Shown piece by piece: positions 39,928-64,000 of a DNA stretch of 64,000 nucleotides. Source of the DNA: Eledone cirrhosa. Lineage: Eukaryota. Position numbers and translations under genes: made by a program. The stretch lies in NCBI GenBank assembly GCA_964016885.1, contig OZ024741.1, positions 217,248,001-217,312,000 of the forward strand, given 5' to 3'. Below the pieces are notes generated by a model. The model was not told the DNA's origin. It saw nothing but the letters and a program-made list of their open reading frames with translations, and did not search any database. Each line of letters opens with the position of its first letter. Position 1 is the stretch's first letter.

Positions 39928-40397
39928 TATATTTATATATTATATATTACAATTCAGATAAATGAGAAATTGGTTTTCATCAGAGTTCTTGCGTGACTTT
40001 GGTGTGTCTCCAGAGATTTCTTAATATTCACTCTAAATAGCTGTAGCTGCAAAAGAGAAAAATTGAGGCTTTATTGGTTGTGACCCCAGATTTTATAAAA
40101 GGAATGATATAACAAGTTATTACCAGTGTATTATTGCTATTGCTAGACTGAACAAAACAAAATGGAACTTACATACCACCCCTGCTTTGGTTATAGGAGA
40201 TTTATTGGGTGATTTAATGATAAGGAGCCCAGTCCTATCATGTAATAATTCACTCTAATGTTGGTTTAGCTGGCCTCCTATAAAGTTGTTTCTTAAAGGA
40301 GGTTTATTGGGTGTTTTAATGATAGGTGGCCCCCCAGTCCTATCATGGTATAACTCACACCTGTGTAGGTTTAGCTGATTTCCTACAAGGTTGTATC

Positions 40398-41347: not shown

Positions 41348-41454
<107 letters not shown>

Positions 41455-41614
41455 AACTGGAATAAATGCTCTGAAATAGCGATATATATGTGAATATAGA
41501 CATAGAATATTCGAAAATATTCTGTATGTTTATAATAAACATTTTGAAGACCTAATCGCTATAGAATAGAATACGTCACGTATTACAATTAGATTCTCGA
41601 TAAAAGCAAGGGAA

Positions 41615-41657
41615 GTAATCTACGCGTTTCATTCTTTTTAGAAATCATCAGGACTAC
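41615..41657 (-). ncRNA. Minimal type I hammerhead ribozyme motif (repeat unit 1)
   Basis: Minus strand reads gtagtc CTGATGA tttctaaaaagaat GAAA cgcg TA gattac. Confidence 0.75.
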
Positions 41658-41924
41658 ATATCCAGTGCTTTTATCGAGAATGACACAGCTAGAGACTTAT
41701 AGAATACTTAGCTGTGTACAGGAACTGGTTTGAAAGAGCGGTTGCCGGTCCGGCAGAAATTAGAAACTGGAATAAATGCTCTGAAATAGCGATATATATG
41801 TGAATATAGACATAGAATATTCGAAAATATTCTGTATGTTTATAATAAACATTTTGAAGACCTAATCGCTATAGAATAGAATACGTCACGTATTACAATT
41901 AGATTCTCGATAAAAGCAAGGGAA

Positions 41925-41967
41925 GTAATCTACGCGTTTCATTCTTTTTAGAAATCATCAGGACTAC
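41925..41967 (-). ncRNA. Minimal type I hammerhead ribozyme motif (repeat unit 2)
   Basis: Identical motif 310 bp from the unit 1 copy. Confidence 0.75.
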
Positions 41968-42222
41968 ATATCCAGTGCTTTTATCGAGAATGACACAGCT
42001 AGAGACTTATAGAATACTTAGCTGTGTACAGGAACTGGTTTGAAACAGAATATTTTCGAATATTCTATGTCTATATTCACATATATATCGCTATTTCAGA
42101 GCATTTATTCCAGTTTCTAATTTCTGCCGGACCGGCAACCGCTCTTTCAAACCAGTTCCTGTACACAGCTAAGTATTCTATAAGTCTCTAGCTGTGTCAT
42201 TCTCGATAAAAGCACTGGATAT

Positions 42223-42265
42223 GTAGTCCTGATGATTTCTAAAAAGAATGAAACGCGTAGATTAC
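42223..42265 (+). ncRNA. Minimal type I hammerhead ribozyme motif (inverted unit)
   Basis: gtagtc CTGATGA tttctaaaaagaat GAAA cgcg TA gattac. Confidence 0.75.
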
Positions 42266-42410
42266 TTCCCTTGCTTTTATCGAGAATCTAATTGTAATAC
42301 GTGACGTATTCTATTCTATAGCGATTAGGTCTTCAAAATGTTTATTATAAACATACAGAATATTTTCGAATATTCTATGTCTATATTCATATATATATAT
42401 ATATATACAT

Positions 42411-42452
<42 letters not shown>

Positions 42453-42508
42453 TTCGTTTCTGAATTTGTTTAGCAAGATTCTTTATCTGAAATCGTGTGT
42501 TGAAACCG

Positions 42509-42982
42509 ATATTGTTATACTTTGGGAGGGTCATGTTGCCAATAAGAAACACACGCACCAGTTGCTTTCACTTCAATTTATTATATATTTATAAATTTAT
42601 AAATTTACAAATCTACAAACTTATAAATTTCTGGTTGGTTGGTTGGTTCCACAACCAGATAGTTGTTTATATATAGTCATAGTCCTTTCGTCACACACTC
42701 TGTGACCTCTTCAGTGACTGGGGATTCCTTTCTTTGTTTCTGTGCCTTTCCTTTCTTCTATCCTACGCCATTTTGTTTCTGTGTGTGTGTTGTGTTCAGA
42801 GTGTGTGACGAAAGGACTATGACTATATATAAACAACTATCTGGTTGTGGAACCAACCAACCAACCAGAAATTTATAAGTTTGTAGATTTGTAAATTTAT
42901 AAATTTATAAATATATAATAAATTGAAGTGAAAGCAACTGGTGCGTGTGTTTCTTATTGGCAACATGACCCTCCCAAAGTAT

Positions 42983-42990
<8 letters not shown>
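42509..42990. mobile_element. Fold-back with ~195-bp arms and a degenerate hammerhead
   Basis: 42509-42702 is the reverse complement of 42797-42990. Confidence 0.75.
42675..42719 (-). ncRNA. Degenerate hammerhead motif
   Basis: agtca CTGAAGA ggtcacagagtgtgtgac GAAA ggac TA tgact. Stem II is off by one base and stem III is not palindromic. Confidence 0.45.
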
Positions 42991-43015
<25 letters not shown>

Positions 43016-43930: not shown

Positions 43931-44244
43931 CATAGTCACCTCTTTCCCTCTCTGTCATTATCATCAACCACCAGCATTTCGGAAGTTGATTCTCTTTCCC
44001 CCAACCCACCACATCTCCACCCTGTTGACTGTGTTTAGAAACTTGCAGGAGGGGTGACCCTATAACGCACACACACGCACATACACACATGTACTATTAT
44101 AACATACATACACGGACACATAGCCACATACACTACTATGACATACACACACACACACACTATACCAACCCACTAAGATTACTTAACTGTTATTTCCATC
44201 CCTGTTCAGTTTTACATAAACACTCCCCTTCCTGTCTCTTTCTC

Positions 44245-44284
<40 letters not shown>

Positions 44285-44368
44285 TCTATATATATATATC
44301 TATATACATACATATATATATATATATATACATATATATATACATATATATATATACATATATATATG

Positions 44369-44453
<85 letters not shown>

Positions 44454-44459
44454 ATATAT

Positions 44460-44493
<34 letters not shown>

Positions 44494-44509
44494 ATACATA
44501 TATATACAT

Positions 44510-44543
<34 letters not shown>

Positions 44544-44557
44544 ACATATATATACAT

Positions 44558-44625
<68 letters not shown>
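44245..44625. repeat. (TA)n/(TACA) microsatellite
   Basis: Seen directly in the sequence. Confidence 0.95.
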
Positions 44626-44628
<3 letters not shown>

Positions 44629-44791
44629 AACCAGTAAGACCCCGACAGCTGAGCTCAAGCCGTTTCGACGGCTAAACGGCTTGAGCTCAGCTGTCGGGGT
44701 CTTACTGGTTCCTATTACCCACTCTACTACCTCAAGTATTGAGTACTTTGGTGCGTTATGGTCCACCTGGTTCCTTACCACATTTCCTTCG

Positions 44792-44795
<4 letters not shown>
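44626..44795. mobile_element. Short (TA)n-embedded repeat family with a terminal hairpin; other copies at ~4915-5045, 9090-9230, 12730-12870, 39120-39225, 43015-43165
   Basis: Shared sequence tacccactctactacc..aagtattgagtact..ggtgcgttatggtcca..tggttcctta; palindrome at 44626-44713. Confidence 0.65.
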
Positions 44796-44879
<84 letters not shown>

Positions 44880-46656
44880 ATAATATATATATATACATAT
44901 ATATATCTAGGACACACACACACATACACACAATTATCTAGTCTCTATTTCTGACTCAACAGTAATAAATGTCAGGCTGGTAGACTAGTAAACCCTAAAA
45001 GTACTGGGTCCACTTTTTGAAAATGGTTTAGAGGAATTAGGGGGGTGTTGAATATGAAGTTCTTAACTCTTTTACTCTTTTACCAGTTCCAGCCATCCGG
45101 CTGAGGCCATGCTGGGGCACCACCCTTGTTGCTACACATTTTATCTCCAGCCTGTATTGGTTGGCCACGGGAGCAAGAGGGAGTTTGTTGCTGCTGCCCT
45201 TAGGTTTCCCTCGTGCCTTGCTGTTGGCTCATCCGGGATCCTGGATAGCAAGGTGTCGAGATGTTTCTTGAAAACATCCACATTCACACCATGCAGATCT
45301 CTCAGATCCCTTGGCATTGTTGGCAGGTTCCCATGACTTATGATGTATCAAATATCTGGTGGGCGTGTTTCATTATTCCTCTATCTTCACCCTTTAGCAT
45401 TTAACCCTTTTGCATTTATATTACTTTATATATACTATAATATTTTCACAGTAAAGGCATAATAATAATAATGAAATTATTGTGTACAGTGCTCAGGTGC
45501 ACTACAACTCATCAAAGGTGCATGTATAGTACATAGAATAATGAACAAATGTCAGGGAAGTGAATAGTGTATGAGTCATGATATACATGTGTGCGTGTGT
45601 TTGGAGGGGGAGTATTAGGTGTAGTGTTGGCGAATCTCGGGAAGCATGGAAGTTTTAAAGGATGCAGTGTCTCGACAGCTAACAACTGATGCAGGTAGTT
45701 TGTTCTATGCTTCAGCAACTCTGAGCATGAAAAAATGTTTCCGAAAGTCATGGGAACTGTGCTGTTTTCTGACTTTGTTGGCATGCCCACGTGTGTTAGA
45801 CACATGGAAATCAAAAAGGTACTCAGGGTTGTTGTTGGCAAGATGGTTAATAATTTTGCGGGTGTGTTATCTCATATAATTATCTCACATAACATCGAAT
45901 CTATGAGATTTTGATATTATTTATTTTGTGAACAATACCTTAACATCAGTAGGAGCAGCCGGTTACAGCCGGTTGGAGAGAATTGTGGCTGGATACGGCC
46001 GGTTTAAAGGCTAAAGTGTTAAAACAGCCATTATCCAGCCAGAATTTTCTCACTTCTTTCTGTTCAAACCAACTGTAACTGGCCACTCATACTGATGTTA
46101 AGGTATTGTTCTCAAAATAAATAACATCAAAATGTTTTAGATTCGATGTTATGTACAATAAAGCCTTTATAAAAAAAAAACAATAGTAAATATAGAGTAA
46201 TGTAAATGCTAAAGGGTTAACCATGTTATCAGCCACCTTGCTGATGTATTGGCCAATGTTCCTATTGAAAGTGCTTGGTTATACCAAAAACTTATCATAG
46301 CACCAACACTATCAACTTACAGAGTGTACTAGGTGTATTCTAACATAACACCAGCACTATCACTTTATAGAGTGCACTGGGTGTATTTTATCATGGCACT
46401 AGCACTGCCACTTTGTAGATTGAACAGCATGCATTTTATTATGGTACCAGTACAACCACTTTAGAGAATGTAGAAGGTGTATTCTATCATGGTATCAACA
46501 CTACCACTTTACAGAGTGTACTGGGTGTATTTTATTGTGACACTAGCGCTACCACGTTACAGAGATCAGGGAGTCAATCCAGGTAAAATCGGGACATCTC
46601 AAAGTCAAGTGATCGCAGTAAAGTTACCAGACACACACACACATATGTATTTATAC

Positions 46657-46794
46657 CTTTAGGTGGACAAAACATCCGTGTACAAGCTATTTCACCATCT
46701 CCAACACAATGACATCTGTTACAGTCTACCATGAATGATTCTCCTGCTGTGAAGTTCTTTCCATCATGGTGGCACATTCCTCTGGTCATATTAA
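46657..46794 (-). CDS. Module exon A: VNMTRGMCHHDGKNFTAGESFMVDCNRCHCVGDGEIACTRMFCPPK
   Basis: Acceptor ttccag at 46800-46795; donor GTATAA at 46656-46651; 138 nt, open frame. Confidence 0.8.
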
Positions 46795-49700
46795 CTGGAA
46801 TATAATTTAGAAATATATATATCATCATCATCATCACCATCTTTAATATAGGTGTCCGACTTTTATTAGGACTTGGTGAACATACGACAAAACTGTTTCA
46901 GAAAGGAGGGATAAACATGCCAATCTATGTTTAGAATCCCGAGCAACGCCGGGCCATTCTGCTAGTGGGTATTAAATTGAAAAATTTTAACCATCAAAAA
47001 ACTAAAAAGCCCAGCTTAGGGCATAAATAAACTGCTACAGCCATTGTTAGTGGGGACCCCTACTGCATGGGGCCTGGAATAATTATCCCTTTGCCTCCAA
47101 TTATATGCAGCTCTGCACAATGCATGTGAGTGGAGTCCTGTTCTTGTCATATGACATATACACAATGTTTAGAGAGACAAATCCAGATTGGTGAGCCAGA
47201 GTAAGTCATCATATTTAGTAATGTGGATTACCTCAAGGTCACCGAGAATTCACCTGATGGGGCAAGCCCGGACAACATGCAGCACTGTCTGGTCAGGGTT
47301 GCTACAATCACATGCTGGGCTGTCCTTCATGTGGGTGGAGAAGTTCAAATATTGTGGGGACATTTTCATGATTGAATCGAAGGCAGGAGAATAAAATAAG
47401 AGCAATAATTGCAGGAGCTGGTGCAGTAATGTGCCAGCTTCAGCATTTGGTCATTAGAAAATGGGAGGTAGGTATAAAAGTAAAACTTGATATCTTCAAT
47501 GTGATGTTTGTACCAACCAACTCTTACCTATATTCATGCATTATGGGTAATGACTGAAATAATATGATTGTAAATACAAATAACCAAAATGTGGTTCCTC
47601 TGAAAGGTTTTGGAGTAACATTACTCAATGGGGTACATTGTTTAGAGAACAGGGAGACACTCCAGTTAGAAGCACAACTTCTTGAAATCAAGTGATCACA
47701 GCAAAGTTACAAGACACAGACACATATGTATGAATACCTTTAGGTGGACAAAACATCCGTGTACAAGCTACTTCACCATCTCCAACACAATGACATCTGT
47801 TACAGTCTACCATGAATGATTCTCCTGCAGTGAAGTTCTTTCCATCATGGTGGCACATCCCTCTGGTCATATTAACTGGAATATAATTTAGAAATATATA
47901 TCATCTTCATCATCATCCTCACCATCTTTAATATAGGTGTCCTCCTTTGCCAAAGATGTGTAGTCACCTCTCCTGTTCATAATCTTCATGAACAGAATTA
48001 ACATGCACAGCCATACTGGAAGAGGTATCAAAACTGATGGTTGTAGGGTCAGTTGGATGACATGTACAGACAACATGGGGCTACTTAACTCATCAGAGAG
48101 TGATCTCTAACATACACTTGATAGCTTTACTGCCGAGTGCTGTTCAGTAGGAATGAAATTAAATATTGTGAAGAGTGAGACTCTTGTCTTCTCAAGGAAG
48201 CCTGTACAGTGCACACTGCCAAGTTTGGATCTAAACCTTGGGTGACCCGAGTCATGTCAGATTTGGGGAGCCCCTGTACATAAATAATTTGAAATACACA
48301 GCAAGATCCCCAATTTTATATGTCAAAGTAATCTTGGCACAAGTAATTGGAATTGAAAAGTTATATATATAGGTATTATATTACAAAAATTTAACCATCC
48401 TAAAACTATAAAGCCCATTTGAGGGCACAAATAAATTACTCCGGCAGTTGCTTGTGGTGACCCCTACTGCAGTGGGCCTGGAATCATTGCCCCATTTACA
48501 CCTAATTAAATCTGGCTCTGCACACGGCATGTGAGTGGAGATTTCTTCTTGTCATATGACATACACAATGTTTAGAGAGACAAATCCAGATTGGTGAGCC
48601 AGAGTAAGTCATCATATTTAGTAATGTGAATTACATCAAGGTCACCAAGACTTCACGTGATGGGGCATTCCTGAACAACATACGGCACTGTCTGTTCAGG
48701 GTTGATATAATCACATGCTGGGCTGTCCTTTATGTGGGTGGAGAAGGTCAAATATTGTGGGGACATTTTCATGATTGATGGAAGGCAGGAGAATAAAGTA
48801 AGAGCAATAATTGCAGGAGCTGGTGCAGTAATGTGCCAGCTTCAGCATTTGTTCATTAGAAAATTGGAGGTAGGTATAAAAGTAAAACTTGATATCTTCA
48901 ATGTGATGTTTGTACCAACCAACTCTTACATATAGTCATGCATTATGGGTAATGAATGAAAGTATATGATTGTTAATACAAAGAGCCTAAATGTGGTTCC
49001 TCTAAAGGTCTTTGGAGTAACATTACTCAATGGGGTACATTGTTTAGAGAACAGGGAGACACTTCAGTTAGAAACATGATTTCTTGAAATCAAGTGATCA
49101 CATCAAAGTTACAAGACATACAGACACATATGTATGTATATCTTTAGGTGGACAAAACATCCGTGTACAAGCTACTTCACCATCTCCAACACAATGACAT
49201 CTGTTACAGTCTACCATGAATGATTCTCCTGTAGTGAAATTCTTTCCATCATGGTAGCACATCCTTCTGGTCATATTAACTGGAATATAATTTAGAAATA
49301 TATATCATCATCATCACCATCTATAATATAGGTGTCCTCCTTTGACAAACATGTGTAGGTCACCTCTCCTGTTCATAATCTTCATGAACAGAATTAACAT
49401 GCACAGCCACACTGGAAGTGGTATCAAAACTGATGGTTGTAGGGTCAGTCGGATGACATGTACAGACAACATGGGGCTACTTAACTCATCAGAGAGTGAT
49501 CTCTGAAATACACTTGATAGCTTTACTGCAGAGTGCTGTTCAGTAGGAATGAAATTCAATATTGTGAAGAGTGAGACTCTTGTCTTCTCAAGGAAGCCTG
49601 TACAGTGCACACTGCCAAGGTTGGATTTAAAACTTGGGTGACCCGAGTCATGTCAGATTTGGGGAGCCCCTGTACAGAATTAATTTGAAATACACAGCAA

Positions 49701-52700
49701 GATCCCCAATTTTATATGTCAAAGTAATCTTGGCACAAGTAATTGGAATTGAAAAGTTATATATATAGGTATTATATTAAACATCCTAAAACTATAAAGC
49801 CCATTTGAGGTCACAAATAAATTACTGCGGCAGTTGATTGTGGTGACCCCTACTGCAGTGGCCCTGGAATCATTGCCCCATTTACACCTAATTAAATCTG
49901 GCTCTGCACACGGCATATGAGTGGAATCTTGTTCTTTTCATATGACATATACACAATCTTTAGAGAGACAAATCCAGATTGGTGAGCCAGAGTAAGTCAT
50001 CATATTTAGTAATGTTGATTACATCAAGGTCACCAAGATTTCACCTGATGGGGCATTCCTGAACAACATACGGCACTGTCTGGTCAGGGTTGATATAATC
50101 ACATTCTGGGCTGTCCTTTATGTGGGTGGAGAAGTTCAAATATTGTGGCGCCATTCTCCTGATTGATGGAAGGCAGGAGAATAAATAAATTAAGAGCAAT
50201 AATTGCAGGAGCTGATGCAGTAATGTGCCAGCTTCAACATTTGGTCATTAGAAAATGGGAGGTAGGTATAAAAGTAAAACTTGATATCTTCAATGTGATG
50301 TTTGTACCAACCAACTCTTACCTATAGTCATGCATTATGGGTAATGACTGAAATAATATGATTGTAAATTCAAACAACCAAAATGTGGTTCCTCTGAAAG
50401 GTCTTTGGAGTAACATTACTCAATGGGGTACATTGTTTAGAGAACAGGGAGTCACTCCAGTTAGAAGCACAACTTCTTGAAATCAAGTGATCACAGCAAA
50501 GTTACAAGACATAGAGAAACATATGTATGTATACCTTTAGGTGGACAAAACATCCGTGTACAAGCTACTTCACCATCTCCAACACAATGACATCTGTTAC
50601 AGTCTACCATGAATGATTCTCCTGCAGTGAAGTTCTTTCCATCAAGGTGGCACATCCCTCTGGTTATATTAACTGGAATATAATTTAGAAGTAAATATAT
50701 CATCATCATCATCATCACTATCTTTAATATAGGTGTCCTCCTTTGACAAACATGTAGGTCACCTCTCCTGTTCATAATCTTCATGAACAGAATTAACATG
50801 CACAGCCACACTGGAAGTGGTATCAAAACTGATGGTTGTAGGGTCAGTTGGATGACATGTACAGACAACATGGGGCTACTTAACTCATCAGAGAGTGATC
50901 GCTGAAATACACTTGATAGCTTTACTGCCGAGTGCTGTTCAGTAGGAATGAAATTCAATATTGTGAAGAGTGAGACTCTTGTCTTCTCAAGGAAGCCTGT
51001 ACAGTGCACACTGCCAAGGTTGGATTTAAAACTTGGGTGACCCGAGTCATGTCAGATTTGGGGAGCCCCTGTACATAAATAATTTGAAATACACAGCAAG
51101 ATCCCCAATTTTATATGTCAAAGTAATCTTGGCACAAGTAATTGGAATTGAAAAGTTATATATATAGGTATTATATTAAAAAAATTTAACCATCCTAAAA
51201 CTATAAAGCCCATTTGAGGGCACAAATAAATTACTGCGGCAGTTGCTTGTGGTGACCCCTACTGCAGTGGGCCTGGAATCATTGCCCCATTTACACCTAA
51301 TTAAATCTGGCTCTGCACACGGCATGTGAGTGGAGATTTCTTCTTGTCATATGACATATACACAATGTTTAGAGAGACAAATCCAGATTGGTGAGCCAGA
51401 GTAAGTCATCATATTTAGTAATGTTGATTACATCAAGGTCACCAAGACTTCACGTGATGGGGCATTCCTGAACAACATACGGCACTGTCTGGTCAGGGTT
51501 GATATAATCACATGCTGGGCTGTCCTTTATGTGGGTGGAGAAGGTCAAATATTGTGGGGACATTTTCATGATTGATGGAAGGCAGGAGAATAAAGTAAGA
51601 GCAATAATTGCAGGAGCTGGTGCAGTAATGTGCCAGCTTCAGCATTTGTTCATTAGAAAATGGGAGGTAGGTATAAAAGTAAAACTTGATATCTTCAATG
51701 TGATGTTTGTACCAACCAACTCTTACATATAGTCATGCATTATGGGTAATGAATGAAAGTATATGATTGTTAATACAAAGAGCCTAAATGTGGTTCCTCT
51801 AAAGGTCTTTGGAGTAACATTACTCAATGGGGTACATTGTTTAGAGAACAGGGAGACACTTCAGTTAGAAACATGATTTCTTGAAATCAAGTGATCACAT
51901 CAAAGTTACAAGACATACAGACACATATGTATGTATATCTTTAGGTGGACAAAACATCCGTGTACAAGCTACTTCACCATCTCCAACACAATGACATCTG
52001 TTACAGTCTACCATGAATGATTCTCCTGTAGTGAAATTCTTTCCATCATGGTAGCACATCCTTCTGGTCATATTAACTGGAATATAATTTAGAAATATAT
52101 ATCATCATCATCACCATCTATAATATAGGTGTCCTCCTTTGACAAACATGTGTAGTCACCTCTCCTGTTCATAATCTTCATGAACAGAATTAACATGCAC
52201 AGCCACACTGGAAGTGGTATCAAAACTGATGGTTGTAGGGTCAGTCGGATGACATGTACAGACAACATGGGGCTACTTAACTCATCAGAGAGTGATCTCT
52301 GAAATACACTTGATAGCTTTACTGCAGAGTGCTGTTCAGTAGGAATGAAATTCAATATTGTGAAGAGTGAGACTCTTGTCTTCTCAAGGAAGCCTGTACA
52401 GTGCACACTGCCAAGGTTGGATTTAAAACTTGGGTGACCCGAGTCATGTCAGATTTGGGGAGCCCCTGTACAGAATTAATTTGAAATACACAGCAAGATC
52501 CCCAATTTTATATGTCAAAGTAATCTTGGCACAAGTAATTGGAATTGAAAAGTTATATATATAGGTATTATATTAAACATCCTAAAACTATAAAGCCCAT
52601 TTGAGGTCACAAATAAATTACTGCGGCAGTTGATTGTGGTGACCCCTACTGCAGTGGCCCTGGAATCATTGCCCCATTTACACCTAATTAAATCTGGCTC

Positions 52701-55700
52701 TGCACACGGCATATGAGTGGAATCTTGTTCTTTTCATATGACATATACACAATCTTTAGAGAGACAAATCCAGATTGGTGAGCCAGAGTAAGTCATCATA
52801 TTTAGTAATGTTGATTACATCAAGGTCACCAAGATTTCACCTGATGGGGCATTCCTGAACAACATACGGCACTGTCTGGTCAGGGTTGATATAATCACAT
52901 TCTGGGCTGTCCTTTATGTGGGTGGAGAAGTTCAAATATTGTGGCGCCATTCTCCTGATTGATGGAAGGCAGGAGAATAAATAAATTAAGAGCAATAATT
53001 GCAGGAGCTGATGCAGTAATGTGCCAGCTTCAACATTTGGTCATTAGAAAATGGGAGGTAGGTATAAAAGTAAAACTTGATATCTTCAATGTGATGTTTG
53101 TACCAACCAACTCTTACCTATAGTCATGCATTATGGGTAATGACTGAAATAATATGATTGTAAATTCAAACAACCAAAATGTGGTTCCTCTGAAAGGTCT
53201 TTGGAGTAACATTACTCAATGGGGTACATTGTTTAGAGAACAGGGAGTCACTCCAGTTAGAAGCACAACTTCTTGAAATCAAGTGATCACAGCAAAGTTA
53301 CAAGACATACAGACACATATGTATGTATACCTTTCAGACACATATGTATGTATACCTTTAGGTGGACAACGCATCTGTGAACAAGCTATTTCACCATCTC
53401 CAACACAATGACATCTGTTACAGTCTACCATGAATGATTCTCCTGCAGTGAAGTTCTTTCCATCATGGTGGCACATCCCTCTGGTCATATTAACTGGAAT
53501 ATAATTTAGAAGTAAATATATCATCATCATCATCATCATCATCATCACCATCTTTAATATAGGTGTCCTCCTTTGACAAACATGTGTAGGTCACCTCTCC
53601 TGTTCATAATCTTCATGAACAGAATTAACATGCACAGCCACACTGGAAGAGGTATCAAAACTGATGGTTGTAGGGTCAGTCAGATGACATGTACAGACAA
53701 CATGGGGCTACTTAACTCATCAGAGAGTGATCTCTGACATTCACATATGTATGTATACATTTAGGTGGACAACGCGTCCGTGTACAAGCTATTTCACCAT
53801 CTCCTACACAATGACATCTGTTACAGTCTACCATGAATGATTCTCCTGCACTGATGTTCATTCCATCATGGTAGCCGCCCACTCTGGTTATATTAACTGG
53901 AAAATAAGTTAGAAAAAAACCCAGCTATATATATATACCATCATCATCATCATTTTATGCCTGTAAGACTTGGGTTGGGCTGTTTGTCACAAATTACATA
54001 CGTACATACAAACATAATAATTGTTTCTACTTTTGACACAAGACAGCATTTACCCCAGTGCATTACTGGTACTTTATTTTATCAATCCTGTAAGGATGAA
54101 AGGCAAAGATCATCTCGGTGGGATTTGAACTCAGATCATAAAGGGCCGTAACTCTATGCTTCAAAGCATGGTGTCTAGCGCTCTACCAATACTGCCAATC
54201 CGCTATGTATTGCATACATACATAATAATGGCTGCATCTCAGTTTTGAGAATTGCCATCCATATGGCCCTGCTCTGTGTGCAGAAAAGGAGTAGGTAAAA
54301 ATTCCATTCTATGTACCAAATGCAAGCAATGGGTGTACAAGAGATGTAGTAGGATCTCAGGCAGGCTAACAAAGATTGTAGGCAAGTGTACATGGGCAGT
54401 AAGTAGCAAGAACCCTCAGGATACAACCACCTTCAAATGCTCAGATGGCTTGGTTGAAGTGGTAGATAGTTTCTGTTATCTATACCAAATCAGTAGTGGG
54501 GGAGGGTGCTCCAAAAGCACAGTAACCAGAGTGAGATCAGGTTGGAGAAAGTTCAGGGAGCTACTACCGTTACTAACTACAAAAGGTTTTTCTCAAAATG
54601 AAAGGCAGACTGTATGATACATGTATATGAACAACAATGTTGCACAAAAGAGAGACCTGGCACTATGTGCGGAGGACCTGTGAAAATTGGAAAGGAATGA
54701 AGCCTCCATGCTTCACTGGATGTGCAATAGCAATATACATGGACGGCAAAGTATCAATACACTGTGTGAGGAATTAAGCTTGAGAGAAATCAATTGTTGC
54801 ATGCAGGAGAGGAGATTGCATTGGTCTGGACATGTGATGCATATGAAGGATGACAGCTGTATAATAAGGTTCAGAGCGCTTAAAGTCGATGGTAGCTGTG
54901 GTATGGGCAGGACTAGGAAGACTTAGGATGAGGTAATAAAAGCTGACCTTGCATAATTACACCTCTCAAAGGCAATGACTCAGGACTGCAACCTCTGGCG
55001 CTATGCAGTTTTACAGAAGACCCACTCTCTATTGTTCTCGCGATGATGCTATACCTAGTAGGCAACACCTTCCTCAACCTTCTATCCCCTCTCATTCACC
55101 TCCCTCATCGGTAACCATACCTTCCCTACTACCCTGTCCACATTTTTTCCCCCAAGCCGCTCCACTCTCGCTAGTCAGATAAAAGTGCCTAGGCCTCACT
55201 GTGTTGTGTCGGTGACACAACAAAGGTGCTTAGTCTACACTGTAAAGAACATCCAGCACACACAGTAAAGTGATCATGTAGTTGTCACAACAAAAAGCAC
55301 CGAGCGCATGCAGTCAATGTGGTTGGCTTTAGGAAGGGCATCCAGCTATAGAAAACCATCCAGAAACTCTCCTATATAAGCAAGACATGGTCACTCGACC
55401 CAACTTGCCTCTAATTGGGACAAATCCATCTAAGCCGTGCTAGTGAGGAAGATAGACGTTAATCGACGATGATGATGATGATGATGAACTTTTTCTCATA
55501 CATGGGTGACACAAACATGATCTTTTAACACTGGCAAGGAGTTAGATTCTTTTCTGCATATGTTGTAGCGAAAGGTAAAAGAAAAGCCCCACGTGAATGT
55601 TGTTTAGATTAAGTGATGTTAGAAGCTCTTGAAGTGAAAAATTGCCTTGCACTAGATCAACCCCAATCTCTGAACAATGGTGACAGGTATCCCCAAAATA

Positions 55701-57204
55701 AGAACAGGTCAACATCATTAACTGCCATTGTGTTGAAGGCTTTATATCAGAGTGTTGTTCCTTCTCCTAGACTGATGTCCTAACAAGAACTAGGAGTTTC
55801 TCACTCCCAGTTGGCTAGCCATGCACTCGGGTACCCCACCAAGTATTTCCATGTCACTGGACACCCATACATAATACATTAATGATTTCTAGTATAAGCA
55901 CAAGGCCAGTAATTTGGGGGAAGGGGAAGGTAGATTAAATCGACCCGAGTACGTTACTGGTACTTTATTTTATCGACCCCATAAGGTTGAAAGGCAAAGT
56001 TAACCTTGGCGGGATTTGAATTCTGACCGTAAAGGGATGTAACTCTTTGCTGCAAAGCATGGTGTCCGACCCTCTACCAATACTGCCAGTTCACCGCCTT
56101 CATAATACATTAATACATATATTTATATATCATCATCATTATTATATATACATACACAGATACATATGTACATAAACTGATACACATAACTACATGCAAT
56201 GTTAAAAGTCACATATGTATATATACCTTTAGGTGGACCAAACCTTGTACAAACTATGTGACCTCTTTCAACACAATGACTTCTGTTACAGTCTATTCTA
56301 AATGATTCTTCTGATGATGATACATATATATATATATAATGAAACATATATATATGTATCATCATCAGTCCATGCTGTAAAGTGGTCATGTAGGGGACAT
56401 GTTAAATAGCACCCAGCACACACTGAAAAAGTTGTTGGTGTTAGGAAGGATATCCAGCCATAAAAACAAAGCCAAAATCAGGAGCAAATCACGGTCCCCT
56501 AACCTGATCTCTCACAAAGGGACAGCTTGTCGAACCTATGCTAGCATGGAAGATGGATGATAAACGATGATGATAATGTTGATGATGATGATGATCATGA
56601 TCATTATCATTTTATGTCTGTAATCCATGCTGACTTGGGTTTGGGGAGTTTGTCCCCAAATACATACATAGTAATGGCTGCATCTCAGTTTTGAGAATTG
56701 CCATCCCTTGACCTTTTTCTCATACGTGAATGTCACAAGGACTTCGATTCCTTTCTGCATATGTTGCAGCAAAAGCTAAGAAAAAATACCATGCTTACAC
56801 AACATATGTGAATGTCGTTGAGATTAAGCAATGCCTGTGCTTGAAGCTTTTTTAAATGAAGAAAGGCTTTGCACTGGACCAATCCCACTCTCTGAACAAT
56901 GGTGACAGGTATCCAAGAAGAACAGGTCAACATCATTGGCTGTCATTGAAGCACAGGTTTTACATCAGAGTTTTTCTTCTCCTAGAATGATGTCCTAATA
57001 AGAACTTAGGGTATTTTTCTCCCAACATGCTAACTGTGCACTTTGGCACCAAACCAAGTATTTCCATGCTCCTGCACATACATATATAATACACACATCA
57101 ATACATACATAATACATACATAAACACATACATGCATATATATCAACATCACCATCATCATCTGTACATGTACAGACACACATAACTACTTGCAATGTTA
57201 AAAG

Positions 57205-57238
<34 letters not shown>

Positions 57239-60200
57239 GGATTACAGACTGGCAACTCAAGCTAGCTGCGGACAAGTGTACCACCATGCATTTTAAGCAG
57301 AAAAACCCAGCATACACATATTCCCTCCACAACACCAATCTCAAGAAGCCTTGTTGTGAACGTGACCTGGGCATTATTGTCAACAGTGATTTGCATTGGA
57401 CCAGGCACATCTCTAAAATTGTCAACAAGGCTCTCCAGCTATCTATCTAAAGCTGTATATAGCTATGGTGCGTCCGAACTGAGAATTTGCATCACCACTT
57501 TGGAACTCCTATCTTGGTCAGAATATTGACCTCCTGGAATGTGTTCAGAGACGTGCAACCAAATGAATACCCTCCATCAGGCATCTACCATACTCTGAAT
57601 GCCTTGCTTCCTTGGGTATAGATACATTAAAGCTCTGATGTCTGGCAACTGACTTGGTAGATACTCACAAAATTATTAACCATCTTTCCAACAGCAACCC
57701 TGGGTGCGTTTTTGAATTCCATGTATCTAAAACCTGTGGACAAGCTTACAAAATCAGTTGTAGTGCACTTGAGCAGTGTATATAGTAATGTTCATTATTA
57801 TATTATTATTATATACCATTAGGTAGACAAAGCATCTGTGTACAAGCTACTTCACCATCTCCAACACAATGACATCTGTTACAGTCTACCATGAATGATT
57901 CTCCTGCAGTGAAATTCTTTCCATCATGGTAGCACATCCCTCTGGTCATATTAACTGGAATATAATTTAGAAATATATATCATCATCATTAATCCTCACC
58001 ATTTTTAATATAGGTGTCTGACTTTGGCAAAGATGTGTAGGTCACATCTCCTATTCATAATCTTCATGAACAGAATTAACATGCACAGCCATACTGGAAG
58101 TTGTATCACAACTGATGGTTGTAGGGTCAGTTGGATGACATGTACAGACAACATGGGGCTACTTAACTCATCAGAGAGTGATCTCTAACATACACTTGAT
58201 AGCTTTACTGCCGAGTGCTGTTCCGTAGGAATGAAATTCAATATTGTGAAGAGTGAGACTCTTGTCTTCTCTAGGAAGCCTGTACAGTGCACACTGCCAA
58301 GGTTGGATCTAATCCTTGGGTGACCCGGGTCATGTCAGATATGAGGAGACCCTGTACATAAATAATTTGAAATACACAGCAAGGCCCCTAATTTTATATA
58401 TCAAAGTAAGTTTGGCACAAGTAATTGGAATTGAAAAGTTATATATATAGGTATTAAATTGAAAAATGTTAACCATCCTAAAACTAAGAAGCCCAGCTAA
58501 GGGCACAAATAAGTTACTCTGGCATTTGCTGGTGGGGTCTCTCACTGAAGGGGGCCTGGAATAATTGCCTTACTAAATCCGGCAAAGAACACGTCATGTG
58601 ACTGGAGTCTTGTTCTTCTCATATGACATATACACAATGTTTAGTGAGACAGATCCAGATTGGTGAGCCAGAGTAAGTCATCATATTTAGTAATGTGAAT
58701 TACATCAAGGTCACCAAGACTTCACCTGGTAGGGCAATCCTGAACAACATACGGCACTGTCTGGTCAGGGTTGCTATAATCACATGCTGGGCTGTCCTTC
58801 ATGTGGGTGGAGAAGTTCAAATATTGTGGGGCCATTCTCCTGATTGATGGAAGGCAGAAGAATAAATTATGAGCAATAATTGCAGGAGCTGGTGCAGTAA
58901 TGTGCCAGCTTCAGCATTTGGTCATTAGAAAATGGGAGGTAGGTATAAAAGTAAAACTTGATATCTTCAATGTGATGTTTGTACCAACCAACTCTTACAT
59001 ATAGTCATGCATTATGGGTAATGACTGAAATAATATTATTGTAAATGCAAACAATCAAAACGTGGTTCCTCTGGAAGGTCTTTGGAGTAACATTACTGAA
59101 TGGGGTACATTGTTTAGAGAACAGGGTGTCACTCCAGGTAGAAGCACGACCTCTCGAAATCAAGTGATCACAGCAAAGTAACAAGACATACAGAAACATA
59201 TGTATGTATACCTTTAGGTTGACAAAACATCCGTGTACAAGCTACTTCACCATCTCCAACACAATGACATCTGTTACAGTCTACCATGAATGATTCTCCT
59301 GCAGTGAAGTTCCTTCCATCATGGTAGCACATCCCTCTGGTCATATTAACTGGAATATAATTTAGAAATATATATCATCATCATCATCATCATCATCACC
59401 ATCTTTAATATAGGTGTCTTCCTTTTACAAACATGTGTAGGTCACCTCTCCTGTTCATAATCTTCATGAACAGAATTAACATGCACAGCCACACTGGAAG
59501 TGGTATCACAACTGATGGTTGTAGGGTCAGTTGGATGACATGTACAAACAACATGGGGCTACTTAACTCATCAGAGAGTGATCTCTAACATACACTTGAT
59601 AGCTTTACTGCCGAGTATTGTTCACTAGGAATGAAATTCAATATTGTGAAGAGTGAGACTCTTGTCTTCTCAAGGAAGCCTGTACAGTGCACACTGCCAA
59701 GGTTGGATTTAAACCTTGGGTGACCCGACTCATGTCAGATTTGGGGAGCCCCTGTACGTAAATAATTTGAAATACACAGCAAGATCCCTAATTATATATA
59801 TCAAAGTAATCTTGGCACAAGTAATTGGAATTGAAAAGTTATATATATAGGTATTATATTAAAAAGATTTAAACCATCCTAAAACTAAAAAGCCCAGTTG
59901 AGGGCACAAATAAATTACTCTGGCAGTTGCTTGTGGGGACCCTTATTGCAGTGGGTCTGGGATCATTGCCCCATTTACACCTAATTAAATCTGGCTCTGC
60001 ACACTGCATATGAGTGGAGTCTTGTTCTTCTCATATGACATATACACAATGTTTGGAGAGACAAATCCAGATTGGTGAGCCAGAGTAAGTCATCATATTT
60101 AGTAATGTGGATTACATCAAGGTCACCTAAACTTCACCTGGTAGGGCAATCCTGAACAACATACGGCACAGTCTGGTCAGGGTTGTTATAATCACATGCT

Positions 60201-63200
60201 GGACTGTCCTTCATGTGTGTGGAGAAGTTCAAATATTGTGGGGCCATTCTCCTGATTGATGGAAGGCAGGACAATAAAGTAAGAGCAATAATTGCAGGAG
60301 CTGGTGCAGTAATGTGCCAGCTTCAGCATTTGGTCATTAGAAAATGGGAGGTAGGTATAAAAGTAAAACTTGATATCTTCAATGTGATGTTTGTACCAAC
60401 CAACTCTTACCTATAGTCATGCATTATGGGTAATGAATGAAATAATATGATTGTAAATACAAACAACCAAAATGTGGTTCCTCTGGAAGGTCTTTGGAGT
60501 AACATTACTCAATGGGGTACATTGTTTAGAGAACAGGGAGTCACTCCAGGTAGAAGCATGACTTCTTGAAATCAAGTGATCACAGCAAAGTGACAAGACA
60601 TACAGAAACATATGTATGTGTACCTTTAGGTGGACAAAACATCCGTGTACAAGCTACTTCACCATCTCCAACACAATGACATCTGTTACAGTCTACCATG
60701 AATGATTCTCCTGCAGTGAAGTTCTTTCCATCATGGTAGCACATCCCTCTGGTTATATTAACTGGAATATAATTTAGAAGTAAATATATCATCATGATCA
60801 TCATCACCATCTTTAATATAGGTGTCCTCCTTTAACAAAGATGTGTAGGTCACCTCTCCTGTTCATAATCTTCATGAACAGAATTAACATGCACAGCCAT
60901 ACTGGAAGTGGTATCAAAACTGATGGTTGTAGGGTGAGTCAGATGACATGTACAGACAACATGGGGCTACTTAACTCATCAGAGAGTGATCTCTGACATT
61001 CACATATGTATGTATACCTTTAGGTGGACAACGCATCCGTGTACAAGCTATTTCACCATCTCCTACACAATGACATCTGTTACAGTCTACCATGAATGAT
61101 TCTCCTGCACTGACGTTCATTCCATCATGGTAGCAGCCCACTCTGGTTATATTAACTGGAAAATAAGTTAGAAAAAAACCCAGCTATATATATATACCAT
61201 CATCATCATCATTGTATGCCTGTAAGACTTGGGTTGGGCTGTTTGTCACTAATCACATATGTAGATACAAACATAATAATTGTTTCTACTTTTGACACAA
61301 GACAGCATTTACACCAGTGCATTACTGGTACTTTATTTTATCAATCCTGTAAGGATGAAAGGCAAAGATAATCTCGGTGGGATTTGAACCCAGATCATAA
61401 AGGGCCGTAACTCTATGCTTCAAAGCATGGTGTCTGGCGCTCTACCAATACTGCCAATCCGCTATGTATTGCATACATACATAATAATGGCTACATCTCA
61501 GTTTTGAGAATTGCCAACCATATGGCCCTGCTCTGTGTGCAGAAAAGGAGGAGGTAGAAATTCCATTCTATGTACCAAATGCAAGCAATGGGTGCACAAG
61601 AGATGTAGTAGGATCTCAGGCAGGCTAACAAAGATTGTAGGTTTTACTCATGGCAGGTGTACATGGGCAGTAAGTAGCAAGAACCCTCAGGATACAACCA
61701 CCTTCAAATGCTCAGATGGCTTGGTTGAAGTGGTAGATAGTTTCTGTTATCTATACCAAATCAGTAGTGGGGGAGGGTGCTCCAAAAGCACAGTAACCAG
61801 AGTGAGATCAGTTTGGAGAAAGTTCAGGGAGCTACTACCGTTACTAACTACAAAAGGTTTTTCTCAAAATGAAAGGCAGACTGTATGATACATGTATATG
61901 AACAACAATGTTGCACAAAAGAGAGACCTGGCACTATGTGCGGAGGACCTGTGAAAATTGGAAAGGAATGAAGCCTCCATGCTTCACTGGATGTGCAATA
62001 GCAATATACATGGACGGCAAAGTATCAATACACTGTGTGAGGAATTAAGCTTGAGAGAAATCAATTGTTGCATGCAGGAGAGGAGATTGCATTGGTCTGG
62101 ACATGTGATGCATATGAAGGATGACAGCTGTATAATAAGGTTCAGAGCGCTTAAAGTCGATGGTAGCTGTGGTATGGGCAGGACTAGGAAGACTTAGGAT
62201 GAGGTAATAAAAGCTGACCTTGCATAATTACACCTCTCAAAGGCAATGACTCAGGACTGCAACCTCTGGCGCTATGCAGTTTTACAGAAGACCCACTCTC
62301 TATTGTTCTCGGGATGATGCTATACCTAGTAGGCAACACCTTCCTCAACCTTCTATCCCCTCTCATTCACCTCCCTCATCGGTAACCATACCTTCCCTAC
62401 TACCCTGTCCACATTTTTTCCCCCAAGCCGCTCCACTCTCGCTAGTCAGATAAAAGTGCCTAGGCCTCACTGTGTTGTGTCGGTGACGCAACAAAGGTGC
62501 TCAGTCTACACTGTAAAGAACATCCAGCCCACACAGTGAAGTGATCATGTAGGTGTCACAACAAAAAGCACCGAGCACATGCAGTCAATGTGGTTGGCTT
62601 TAGGAAGGGCATCCAGCTATAGAAAACCAGCCAGAAACTCTCCTATATAAGCAAGACATGGTCACTCGACCCAACTTGCCTCTAATTGGGACAAATCCAT
62701 CTAAGCCGTGCTAGTGAGGAAGATAGACGTTAATCGACGATGATGATGATGATGATGAACTTTTTCTCATACATGGGTGACGCAAACATGATCTTTTAAC
62801 ACTGGCAAGGAGTTAGATTCTTTTCTGCATATGTTGTAGCGAAAGGTAAAAGAAAAGCCCCACGTGAATGTTGTTTAGATTAAGTGATGTTAGAAGCTCT
62901 TGAAGTGAAAAATTGCCTTGCACTAGATCAACCCCAATCTCTGAACAATGGTGACAGGTATCCCCAAAATAATAACAGGTCAACATCATTAACTGCCATT
63001 GTGTTGAAGGCTTTATATCAGAGTGTTGTTCCTTCTCCTAGACTGATGTCCTAACAAGAACTAGGAGTTTCTCACTCCCAGTTGGCTAGCCATGCACTCG
63101 GGTACCCCACCAAATATTTCCATGTCACTGGACACCCATACATAATACATTAATGATTTCTAGTATAAGCACAAGGCCAGTAATTTGGGGGAAGGGGAAG

Positions 63201-63581
63201 GTAGATTAAATCGACCCCAGTACGTTACTGGTACTTTATTTTATCGACCCCATAAGGTTGAAAGGCAAAGTTAAACTCGGCGGGATTTGAACTCAGACCG
63301 TAAAGGGATGTAACTCTTTGCTGCAAAGCATGGTGTCCGACCCTCTACCAATACTGCCAGTTCACCGCCTTCATAATACATTAATACATATATTTATATA
63401 TCATCATCATTATTATATATACATACACAGATACATATGTACATAAACTGATACACATAACTACATGCAATGTTAAAAGTCACATATGTATATATACCTT
63501 TAGGTGGACCAAACCTTGTACAAACTATGTGACCTCTTTCAACACAATGACTTCTGTTACAGTCTATTCTAAATGATTCTT
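46657..63581 (-). CDS. Multi-exon gene (partial; 5' end lies beyond the window) encoding a tandem poly-domain Cys-rich protein, pacifastin-like serine protease inhibitor / half-VWC repeats
   Basis: 11 full-length 138-nt exons, each preceded by ...ttccag; 9 are followed by a GT donor (mostly AAAG|GTA). All are phase 1-1 and stop-free, and they concatenate in frame as (V)NMTRGMCHHDGKNFTAGESFMVDCNRCHCVGDGEIACTRMFCPPK. Two truncated copies are also present. The CNxCxC-x3-G-x3-CT-x3-C pattern matches the pacifastin core. Confidence 0.78.
47738..47875 (-). CDS. Module exon B (...EVACTRMFCPPK)
   Basis: Intact AG acceptor and GTATTC donor; 138 nt. Confidence 0.8.
49142..49279 (-). pseudogene. Module exon C (VNMTRRMCYHDGKNFTTGE...CTRMFCPPK) with mutated donor; probable skipped exon or pseudo-exon
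   Basis: Frame open and acceptor intact, but the donor reads AAAG|ATATAC instead of GTATAC (position 49141). Confidence 0.65.
50535..50672 (-). CDS. Module exon D (VNITRGMCHLDGK...VACTRMFCPPK)
   Basis: Intact splice sites; 138 nt. Confidence 0.8.
51939..52076 (-). pseudogene. Module exon E, duplicate of exon C with the same GT>AT donor mutation
   Basis: Sequence matches 49142-49279 at an offset of 2797 bp; donor reads ATATAC. Confidence 0.65.
53356..53493 (-). CDS. Module exon F (...EIACSQMRCPPK)
   Basis: Intact splice sites; variant reactive loop; the donor region is duplicated (25 bp). Confidence 0.78.
53759..53896 (-). CDS. Module exon G (VNITRVGGYHDGMNISAGE...IACTRTRCPPK), first Cys lost
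   Basis: AG and GT intact (AAAT|GTATAC); TGC>GGC relative to the paralogous exon at 61018-61155. Confidence 0.65.
54255..55487 (+). mobile_element. Intronic RTE 3' fragment (antisense to the host gene)
   Basis: WPCSVCRKG..CTKCKQW..SSGGGCS..RLHWSGHV; (GAT)n tail. Confidence 0.85.
56227..56310 (-). pseudogene. Truncated divergent module (EESFRIDCNRSHCVERGHIVCTRFGPPK)
   Basis: 3' half of the module with donor GTATAT; the 5' part is replaced by (TA)/(TCA) repeats; two further Cys lost. Confidence 0.55.
57243..57790 (+). mobile_element. CR1-like LINE 3' fragment (related pieces at ~2140-2500 and ~45470-45860 minus)
   Basis: DWQLKLAADKC..ERDLGIIVNSDLHWTRHISKIVNKA..LECVQRRATK. Confidence 0.75.
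57817..57954 (-). CDS. Module exon I (...EVACTQMLCLPN)
   Basis: Intact acceptor; donor AATG|GTATAT; 138 nt. Confidence 0.72.
59212..59349 (-). CDS. Module exon J (CYHDGRNFTA...CTRMFCQPK)
   Basis: Intact splice sites; 138 nt. Confidence 0.78.
60624..60761 (-). CDS. Module exon K (VNITRGMCYHDGK...CTRMFCPPK)
   Basis: Intact acceptor; donor GTACAC; 138 nt. Confidence 0.78.
61018..61155 (-). CDS. Module exon L (VNITRVGCYHDGMNVSAGE...IACTRMRCPPK)
   Basis: Intact splice sites; all six Cys present; 138 nt. Confidence 0.78.
61515..62758 (+). mobile_element. Duplicate of the intronic RTE fragment
   Basis: Near-identical to 54255-55487. Confidence 0.85.
63498..63581 (-). pseudogene. Truncated divergent module, duplicate of 56227-56310
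   Basis: Same sequence at an offset of 7271 bp. Confidence 0.55.
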
Positions 63582-64000
63582 CTGATGATGATACATATAT
63601 ATATATATGATGAAACATATATATATGTATCATCATCAGTCCATGCTGTAAAGTGGTCATGTAGGGGACATGTTAAATAGCACCCAGCACACACTGAAAA
63701 AGTTGTTGGTGTTAGGAAGGATATCCAGCCAGAAAAACCAAGCCAAAATCGGGAGCAAATCACGGTCCCCTAACCTGATCTCTCACAAAGGGACAGCTTG
63801 TCGAATCTATGCTAGCATGGAAGATGGATGATAAACGATGATGATAATGTTGATGATGATGATGATCATGATCATTATCATTTTATGTCTGTAATCCATG
63901 CTGACTTGGGTTTGGGGAGTTTGTCCCCAAATACATACATAGTAATGGCTGCATCTCAGTTTTGAGAATTGCCATCCCTTGACCTTTTTCTCATACATGA

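Follow-up and report, generated by a model that had tools for sequence, protein, structure and literature searches.

A large minus-strand gene of recently duplicated symmetric exons in Eledone cirrhosa is predicted to encode a chain of 'Ancestral' pacifastin-like modules

The 64-kb window analysed here (the whole stretch of DNA at its full length) appears from its sequence to be the 3′ end of one minus-strand gene of ~98 kb, comprising a signal exon, three older modules and 46 recent exon copies. The predicted product is likely a secreted, glycosylated, multi-headed trypsin-type inhibitor, ~1,950 residues long on the assumption that every one of the 42 spliceable module exons enters the transcript. 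Below, an array module is the six-cysteine unit encoded by one 138-nt phase 1-1 exon (45 codons).

Module exons within the window

The minus strand of the window contains 11 full 138-nt phase 1-1 exons, each an open 45-codon module preceded by a ...ttccAG acceptor, and they differ from one another at 0–18 of 138 bases, a likeness far beyond chance. The original prediction was right on their number, length and phase, but only 8 of the 11 are intact: two have AT instead of GT at the donor and one has lost Cys1. Two further copies are decayed relics.

The 3′-most exon (46657..46794) is intact and has the loop C-T-R-M-F-C. The same TRMF loop is found in the intact exons at 47738..47875 (the query for the Pfam, PDB and fold searches), 50535..50672, 59212..59349 and 60624..60761; the other intact exons have the loops SQMR (53356..53493), TQML (57817..57954) and TRMR (61018..61155). 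The two exons with AT donors, 49142..49279 (predicted to be skipped in frame) and 51939..52076, are identical. The copy at 53759..53896 is spliceable, with Gly in place of Cys1 (five cysteines) and the loop TRTR. Both relics are 5′-truncated with three of six cysteines, one at 56227..56310 behind a CAT microsatellite and the other, 84 nt long, at 63498..63581. Position 63581, previously given as the end of the feature, is a cryptic acceptor of this second relic; the array passes the window edge, with an intron (63582..64000) leaving the window and the gene continuing on contig C2 of the assembly (G000).

Further details proposed for these exons held to different degrees. The module has cysteine spacing 16-2-1-7-4, in agreement with the proposed C1–C2 spacing of 16, and unit comparison bore out the co-amplification of introns with exons. 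A spacing of "mostly" ~1.4 kb is true of 6 of the 10 gaps between full exons, the others being 394, 403, 1081 and 4058. The AAAG exon end is present in 9 of 11 (two of these without a GT donor), with one AATG and one AAAT.

The gene beyond the window

In window-extended coordinates (C2 position minus 217,248,000) the array reaches 110969, 47 kb past the window, which holds only its 3′ quarter. Between C2 217,313,599 and 217,358,969 the minus strand carries 33 more copies (30 intact, one without an acceptor, two relics). Across all 46 copies, 38 are intact, with six cysteines and both splice sites, as are all three older modules; the 8 damaged copies comprise two lost donors, one lost acceptor, four relics and one missing cysteine. 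None of the 41 array exons starting TTAAT has a stop or a change of length, and each of the 41 array exons tallied has two sequons, in keeping with the proposed N-glycosylation.

Upstream on the same strand lie the three older module exons (C2 starts 217,360,470, 217,372,759 and 217,376,432), every one led by KR; within the array, none of the 38 intact copies has a dibasic site in its linker. A TATA box and a signal-peptide exon with a GTGAGT donor lie still further upstream at C2 217,385,778-217,385,664 (L008:3778-3664, minus strand). This exon lies 73.7 kb beyond the window and 9.2 kb before the first module, in frame and in phase; it is unique in the genome and homologous to the signal exons of paralogues on contig C26. 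The original prediction had called for a signal exon beyond 64 kb, and its presence there supports a secreted product. No convincing exon was found among acceptor candidates between the signal exon and the modules.

At the other end, a candidate terminal exon on the minus strand (40070..40147) combines a strong acceptor, one Val codon, TAG and an AATAAA 70 nt on. It is single-copy in the genome and has no similarity to the flanks of the C26 paralogues; 10 such sites occur on 528 kb (both strands), giving a chance of ~1 in 8 of meeting one at this distance.

Identity of the module

All three exons scanned matched Pfam Pacifastin_I with 44.0–45.6 bits against a cut-off of 27.9, which upholds the proposed pacifastin-like nature of the module. 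The Pfam VWC profile scored 27.8–28.7 bits in the same three exons, just above its cut-off and only over profile positions 1–38 of 57. In a PDB sequence search the ten best of 21 matches were pacifastins, headed by SGPI-1-PO-2, with which the module has C-T-R-M-x-C-P-P in common; VWF also matched over nearly the whole module (E 0.016). Cysteines and Asn are invariant in both module alignments, the Gly of the C4–C5 loop is invariant among six C2 rows, and the four residues between C5 and C6 fit a C5-x-P1-P1′-x-C6 loop.

The predicted structure is a five-stranded FnI/VWF-E-like sheet (mean pLDDT 86) with hairpin strands at residues 6–9 and 12–15. The best fold matches were FnI/VWF-E modules (Z 5.0–5.7); pacifastin scored lower (Z 3.3 versus 5.7). 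Foldseek with the predicted module gave no match at E≤0.001, and a search of the ESM Atlas gave no usable match. The earlier label 'half-VWC' is better put as an FnI/VWF-E-type module.

VWC domains, like the chordin CR domain, have ten cysteines and a C-terminal CC-x2-C subdomain. The exons could be N-terminal halves of such domains in a kielin/chordin-type BMP binder, completed by further exons, a reading to which the marginal VWC score and the automatic 'kielin/chordin-like' names of homologues lend something. We consider this extremely unlikely, given the partial VWC match, three intervals of only ~400 bp in which the same exon is retained, the even six cysteines per module, and the lack of any further cysteine-rich exon in 264 kb as scanned with the module profile, which was not built for the VWC C-terminal half. 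Intervening exons with the remaining VWC cysteines, named at the outset as evidence against the prediction, were likewise not found in that scan.

VWF/mucin E modules are preceded by VWD, C8 and TIL domains, and no exon for any of these stood out among acceptor candidates before the modules. FnI and VWF/mucin E modules belong to multi-domain proteins of the matrix or plasma and are not known to inhibit proteases; the FnI/VWF-E fold matches count against an inhibitor function.

The module fits a published description instead. The C1–C2 spacing of 16 falls outside the conventional arthropod C1-x9-12-C2 pattern (PMC2689174), and the original prediction saw in it an intermediate between VWC and pacifastin. 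However, this spacing together with an N-terminal hairpin is the architecture of the 'Ancestral' pacifastin-like class, which has a hairpin of 13–20 residues and is common in molluscs (Rodriguez-Aguilar et al. 2026, PMC13388995). Judged by its sequence, the module belongs to this class, so it is no new intermediate.

Paralogues and homologues

The same genome contains long single-exon paralogues with up to 56 modules per exon, mostly without a basic P1: among 202 such modules P1 is Asn in 115, Ser in 39, Lys in 20 and Arg in none. The C26 paralogues have ~3–11 modules in the stretches examined, linkers without KR, and last modules with TLKA and TLKG loops; by sequence the C26 loops are chymotrypsin-type, and paralogues on C1, C4 and small contigs lack an inhibitor-type loop. 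When modules were parsed from the 150 homologues listed, roughly half had a spacing of 16 or 18. A single-exon homologue search with one candidate found nothing; alignment-based searches did find homologues. An Octopus sinensis homologue had no clear orthologue in the genome (37–51% identity among the matches listed) and was 60.5% identical to a C26 exon over 38 aa.

In a tree of 75 rows and 36 columns whose bootstrap had not settled, all 25 distinct C2 modules share a single branch (96/96), and the KR modules, three in number, group together (100/100); the tree does not show the order of the KR and sequon states. The KR linker position of the old modules reads N-M-T or N-I-T, a glycosylation sequon, in the amplified module.

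Age, constraint and copy number

Alignment of 27 full standard units bore out the proposed recent expansion: nearest neighbours are 0.2–4% apart and the introns were amplified along with the exons. Duplication blocks of 6–16 kb, 92–96% alike, are nested within the array. The copy number could in principle be an assembly artefact, with some units only 0.2–0.3% apart and two exons identical. We regard this as very unlikely: no two of the 27 units are identical, the nested blocks differ, and the gene contains no N gap. Three sequencing runs of one sample proved to be genomic DNA, covering introns and repeats and showing no exon–exon joint among the 15 rows listed. In these runs the deepest array contigs listed reached a depth of 134–197 (others 19–89) against 7.6–8.8 for a flank contig, although contig depth is no copy number and the DNA sample may be the assembly's own.

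Variable columns in the full-unit alignment number 23 of 138 in the exon and 248 of 1183 in the intron (p=0.27). An apparent strong exon constraint (0.19 versus 0.58 variable columns) had come from using 250 intron bases with non-homologous flanks, and full-unit alignment abolished it. Distinct exon variants comprise 32 non-synonymous and 6 synonymous, a rough ratio of ~1.4 with multi-hit codons scored base by base; of the 40 distinct variants a single one lies in a cysteine codon, where 5.3 would be expected (p=0.023, post hoc).

These numbers bear on the idea that what functions is a gene for a small inhibitor precursor, a signal and a few modules, and that the array arose by recent run-away amplification and is largely neutral, part-skipped, variable among individuals and decaying. 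It would account for the non-significant constraint, the variant ratio near or above 1, the 8 of 46 damaged copies and the modest module number of the C26 paralogues. On the other side stand the 41 exons without stop or indel and the spared cysteine codons; moreover, the tests have little power because the copies are so young. We judge this idea improbable, though far from negligible.

The reactive loop and proposed inhibition

Of the 38 intact array modules, 32 have Arg at P1 and 31 have the pair Arg-Met. In molluscs, R-M, K-M and K-K reactive pairs dominate (PMC13388995). SGPI-1-PO-2 is a phage-evolved inhibitor reported to bind bovine trypsin with picomolar affinity, K31M being among its six changes (PMC3030363). 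Proteins annotated as pacifastins, one of them 161 aa long, are reported from the proteome of the posterior salivary gland of Octopus vulgaris (PMC7693380).

The explanation that we favour, and think probable, is that the ~98-kb gene gives a secreted and likely heavily N-glycosylated chain of ~40 'Ancestral' domains, predicted to inhibit trypsin-like proteases. The array exons would be spliced together into one chain, with disulfides paired 1-4, 2-6 and 3-5 by homology, and each C5-T-R-M-x-C6 loop would bind a protease in the canonical, substrate-like manner of inhibition, placing its Arg in the S1 pocket. The KR sites would free the first modules while the array remains one piece. Unequal crossing-over would add exon copies and dead copies would drop out with the frame kept, so that inhibitor dose could rise by exon birth and death; gain and loss are frame-safe because all exons are phase 1-1. 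Protease access may be hindered by the sequon beside the hairpin and by packing of neighbours on the 10-residue linker.

An expressed gene might instead make a mainly structural or adhesive glycoprotein of mucus, egg coat or gland secretion, a string of FnI-like beads in which the Arg-Met loop is inherited and not used. The predicted five-stranded fold, the two sequons in every tallied exon, the long same-genome exons mostly without a basic P1 and the matrix-tethered roles proposed for the Ancestral class (PMC13388995) are all consistent with this. However, this gene has a pacifastin-like loop that the long single-exon paralogues lack, no domain for adhesion or cross-linking came to light, and the nearest PDB sequences are inhibitors; we think the structural role rather unlikely.

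More tentatively, the gene may show the published 'liberation' model in reverse, in which KR frees three old modules and the NMT/NIT linker keeps ~38 mostly Arg-Met heads on one glycan-shielded chain as a trypsin trap. If so, the polyvalent trap could protect a venom or mucous gland of the cephalopod from the serine proteases that abound in it, and the array loop would be nature's counterpart to the picomolar pacifastin loop evolved by phage display.

Comparison with known systems

With the Ancestral class the module shares six cysteines, C2-N, the C4–C5 loop Gly, a PLD-only architecture, an N-terminal β-hairpin within the 13–20 range with Gly and an aromatic residue, and mollusc-typical R-M/K-K pairs. 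Unlike that class as published, this gene has ~41 modules, 38 of them near-identical, with one exon and two sequons each. The text of PMC13388995 and two of its supplements make no mention of octopus or cephalopods.

Dibasic sites between pacifastin domains are common in insects, not universal. Conventional pacifastins (SGPI-1/SGTI, SGCI, PMP-C, crayfish light chain; PF05375) have in common with this gene the C2–C6 core, the C5-T-P1-P1′-x-C6 loop, a first signal exon, a multi-domain precursor and dibasic sites, here before the three older modules. They differ in a C1–C2 spacing of 9–12 (PMC2689174), whereas this module has 16 and an extra hairpin, and intact modules of the array are not separated by dibasic sites. 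Trichoplax TAPP-1 is similar in that its signal exon is followed by ~42 pacifastin-like domains with few dibasic sites, but each of its domains spans two exons (PMC2689174), in contrast to the single symmetric, recently homogenised exon per domain here.

Proteins labelled 'kielin/chordin-like' or VWFC in Mercenaria (XP_053408337), Lottia (XP_009055588) and Octopus sinensis (XP_029652328) are tandem six-cysteine modules with spacing 16–18. Such molluscan proteins have loops similar to that of the array (TRMA, TLMA, TKKA, TKKI) and fewer modules (~3 to 19); their names are automatic, with no function shown. We found no literature naming both pacifastin and kielin. FnI and VWF/mucin E modules share the predicted five-stranded fold.

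Significance

On sequence grounds this gene is of a known kind, an unusually large member of a six-cysteine module class already described in molluscs, and it is not new as a system, as Trichoplax already has a 42-domain precursor. It illustrates neatly how exons are born and die in an array of symmetric exons. Not until 2026 was the long-hairpin pacifastin class defined, on the basis of predictions, and its proteins have been filed in databases as 'kielin/chordin-like'. The gene offers a clean test case, since a natural module of 45 residues with a trypsin-type loop coexists in one genome with paralogues that have chymotrypsin-type loops or no inhibitor-type loops. It could show whether the hairpin-bearing class inhibits proteases, which would link pacifastin, FnI/VWF-E and VWC modules functionally.

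The exon array and its extent

Repeat extraction and a reading of 44,000-64,000 recovered all 11 predicted full-length 138-nt exons on the minus strand, each a single open 45-codon module in phase 1-1 behind a pyrimidine-rich acceptor (...ttccAG), with introns amplified together with the exons as proposed. The spacing of "mostly" about 1.4 kb held for 6 of the 10 intervals between full exons, but the other four deviate. Full copies in the window differ by 0-18 bases, and eight of the 11 are intact (six cysteines and both splice sites); two, identical in sequence, have an AT donor and one has Cys1 changed to Gly. Two 84-nt minus-strand relics (63581-63498 and 56310-56227) retain three cysteines. 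Duplications of higher order also occur within 46657-63581: the AT-donor copy sits in a two-unit repeat of 2.8 kb, and a block of 7.27 kb includes a relic together with a LINE-like fragment. The breakpoints of damaged copies lie at a CAT microsatellite (window 56310 and 63581; contig C2, which carries the gene, 217,330,869), which suggests microhomology-mediated deletion. The surrounding DNA is rich in microsatellites and LINEs; elsewhere the window holds a 310-bp exact tandem pair with a third, inverted copy (41451-42470), a near-perfect inverted repeat of roughly 400 bp (42500-43000) and minisatellites of 48-49-bp units at 20395-22077 (34 copies), 40638-41049 (8) and 46293-46564 (6).

The array is real, and larger than the original prediction could see. 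An own-genome search (at least 108 matches, 150 of 566 candidates scored) shows it running past the window, and the 264 kb around the window contain 46 copies between 110969 and 46657 (window numbering, continued past 64,000): 38 intact, one with five cysteines, two without a donor, one without an acceptor and four relics. Read depth, much greater on array contigs than on a flank contig (three DNA runs, one sample), weakly supports its reality.

Upstream lie three older 138-nt module exons beginning with Lys-Arg, at 128432, 124759 and 112470, the latter two with 58% and 64% protein identity to the first. When hydrophobic start exons followed by a phase-1 donor were sought, 16 rows at nine places came up, among them the signal-peptide exon expected beyond 64 kb, at 137712. 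It is single-copy, has a perfect GTGAGT donor and a TATA box 66 nt upstream of its ATG, and resembles the signal exons, identical to each other, that two paralogues on contig C26 carry. Because 10 comparable sites occur on 528 kb, the single-copy candidate terminal exon at window 40147 (one Val, a stop, AATAAA 70 nt on) is only suggestive. A profile built from 56 modules detected no additional module exons in the fetched DNA; using all 42 spliceable module exons, the predicted product has about 1,950 residues.

A predicted hairpin on a pacifastin core

The array module has cysteine spacing 16-2-1-7-4. All three exons scanned passed Pfam Pacifastin_I (44.0-45.6 bits, cut-off 27.9), as the pacifastin-like assignment anticipated; VWC was barely above its cut-off, matching only the first 38 of 57 profile positions. 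Among 21 PDB sequence matches, pacifastins take the first ten ranks and VWF comes next. An AlphaFold2 model from six natural exons has five strands (pLDDT 86), and fold searches favoured FnI and VWF/mucin E modules (best Z 5.7) over a pacifastin (Z 3.3), all below the level that the search tool terms decisive. The model and these matches therefore point to a putative FnI-like hairpin on a three-stranded pacifastin core. The module had been proposed as a VWC-pacifastin intermediate; both profiles do match, but it fits a class already described in 2026.

PMC2689174 gives the classical pacifastin pattern, disulfides and dibasic processing, and a 42-domain Trichoplax precursor; PMC3030363 gives an account of SGPI-1-PO-2. 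PMC13388995, a computational study with 109 molluscan proteins, defines an 'Ancestral' class by an N-terminal hairpin of 13-20 residues, with fewer dibasic linkers than in arthropods; R-M/K-M/K-K are the dominant pairs in molluscs, bacterial members are recorded, non-metazoan homologues are said to be untested in vitro, and cephalopods go unmentioned in the text and supplements examined.

Homologues and paralogues

When 1.84 billion representatives were searched with a profile, 1,150 matches reached E<=0.001. The 150 listed have C1-C2 spacings of 18 (310 modules), 9 (263), 16 (151), 11 (47) and rarer values; no close full-length orthologue appeared among those listed. Named long-spacing matches include Mercenaria, Ruditapes, Mytilus, Lottia, Liolophura, Octopus, Argonauta and myxobacteria, under labels such as 'kielin/chordin-like', 'VWFC domain' or hypothetical. 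Secreted proteins of myxobacteria and other bacteria (P0012, P0221, P0228 and others) carry the long-spacing module with TKKA/TLMA loops, often beside Kazal domains. P0031, labelled Clostridium perfringens (866-bp contig), is similar to the C26 modules and probably represents contamination from an animal.

The P1 residue of the C5-C6 loop is Arg in 32 of the 38 intact array modules (Gln in 5, Trp in 1), versus Arg in none and Lys in 20 of 202 control modules from nine loci of long single-exon paralogues. These paralogues form a large family with one huge exon of up to 56 back-to-back modules (37 aa, six cysteines; open frames reaching about 2,200 aa), at C1 217.32-217.75 Mb (about a dozen tandem copies on this contig), 206.8 and 207.6 Mb, C4 235.3 Mb, and on C157, C440 and C451. 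Most of their modules lack a basic or hydrophobic P1, a few inhibitor-like ones (TKMY) close the proteins, and their products look like structural cysteine-rich secreted proteins. That the array encodes a chiefly structural product seems to us rather unlikely.

At least four further paralogues, with one exon per module, lie on C26 (14.01-14.08 and 10.03 Mb), two facing each other with an identical signal peptide, part of which is common to an Octopus sinensis protein. Together with the abundance of microsatellites and LINEs in the DNA, this would be compatible with an octopod. Their loops span TKKA, TQMM, TWMF, TIML, TRML, TKMM, TEMM, TLKA and TLKG, with TKMM, TRML, TLKA and TLKG among those of 21 modules. 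Pacifastins are listed among cephalopod salivary components in PMC7693380 and PMC5554399, and the C26 genes are good candidates for cephalopod gland pacifastins.

Age, selection and function

The 27 standard units all differ from one another, and similarity between nested blocks as long as 16 kb is 92-96%, a pattern expected of repeated unequal crossing-over. Variable columns (23/138 in exons versus 248/1183 in introns, p=0.27) do not demonstrate exon constraint over introns, and exon variants are 32 non-synonymous versus 6 synonymous; the array is too young for the selection test to answer firmly. Stops and length changes are absent from 41 array exons, and only 1 of 40 variants falls in Cys codons (p=0.023, post hoc). 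These intact frames and spared codons count toward function, and a largely neutral expansion is, in our judgment, unlikely.

The array gene's anatomy, motifs and duplications are observed directly, and we favour, with moderate confidence, a multi-headed secreted inhibitor. The module exons would be spliced into a single secreted precursor, dead exons dropping out in frame, and the Arg-Met loop may act as a canonical inhibitor. Cleavage at KR would free the first modules. Sequons stand at positions 1 and 13 in all 41 array exons tallied, the first occupying the place of Lys-Arg in the older modules, and the array may stay together as a glycosylated chain. A literature search, with most subscription papers outside its reach, found no published cephalopod pacifastin exon array; this gene is a new, unusually amplified member of the class described in 2026.
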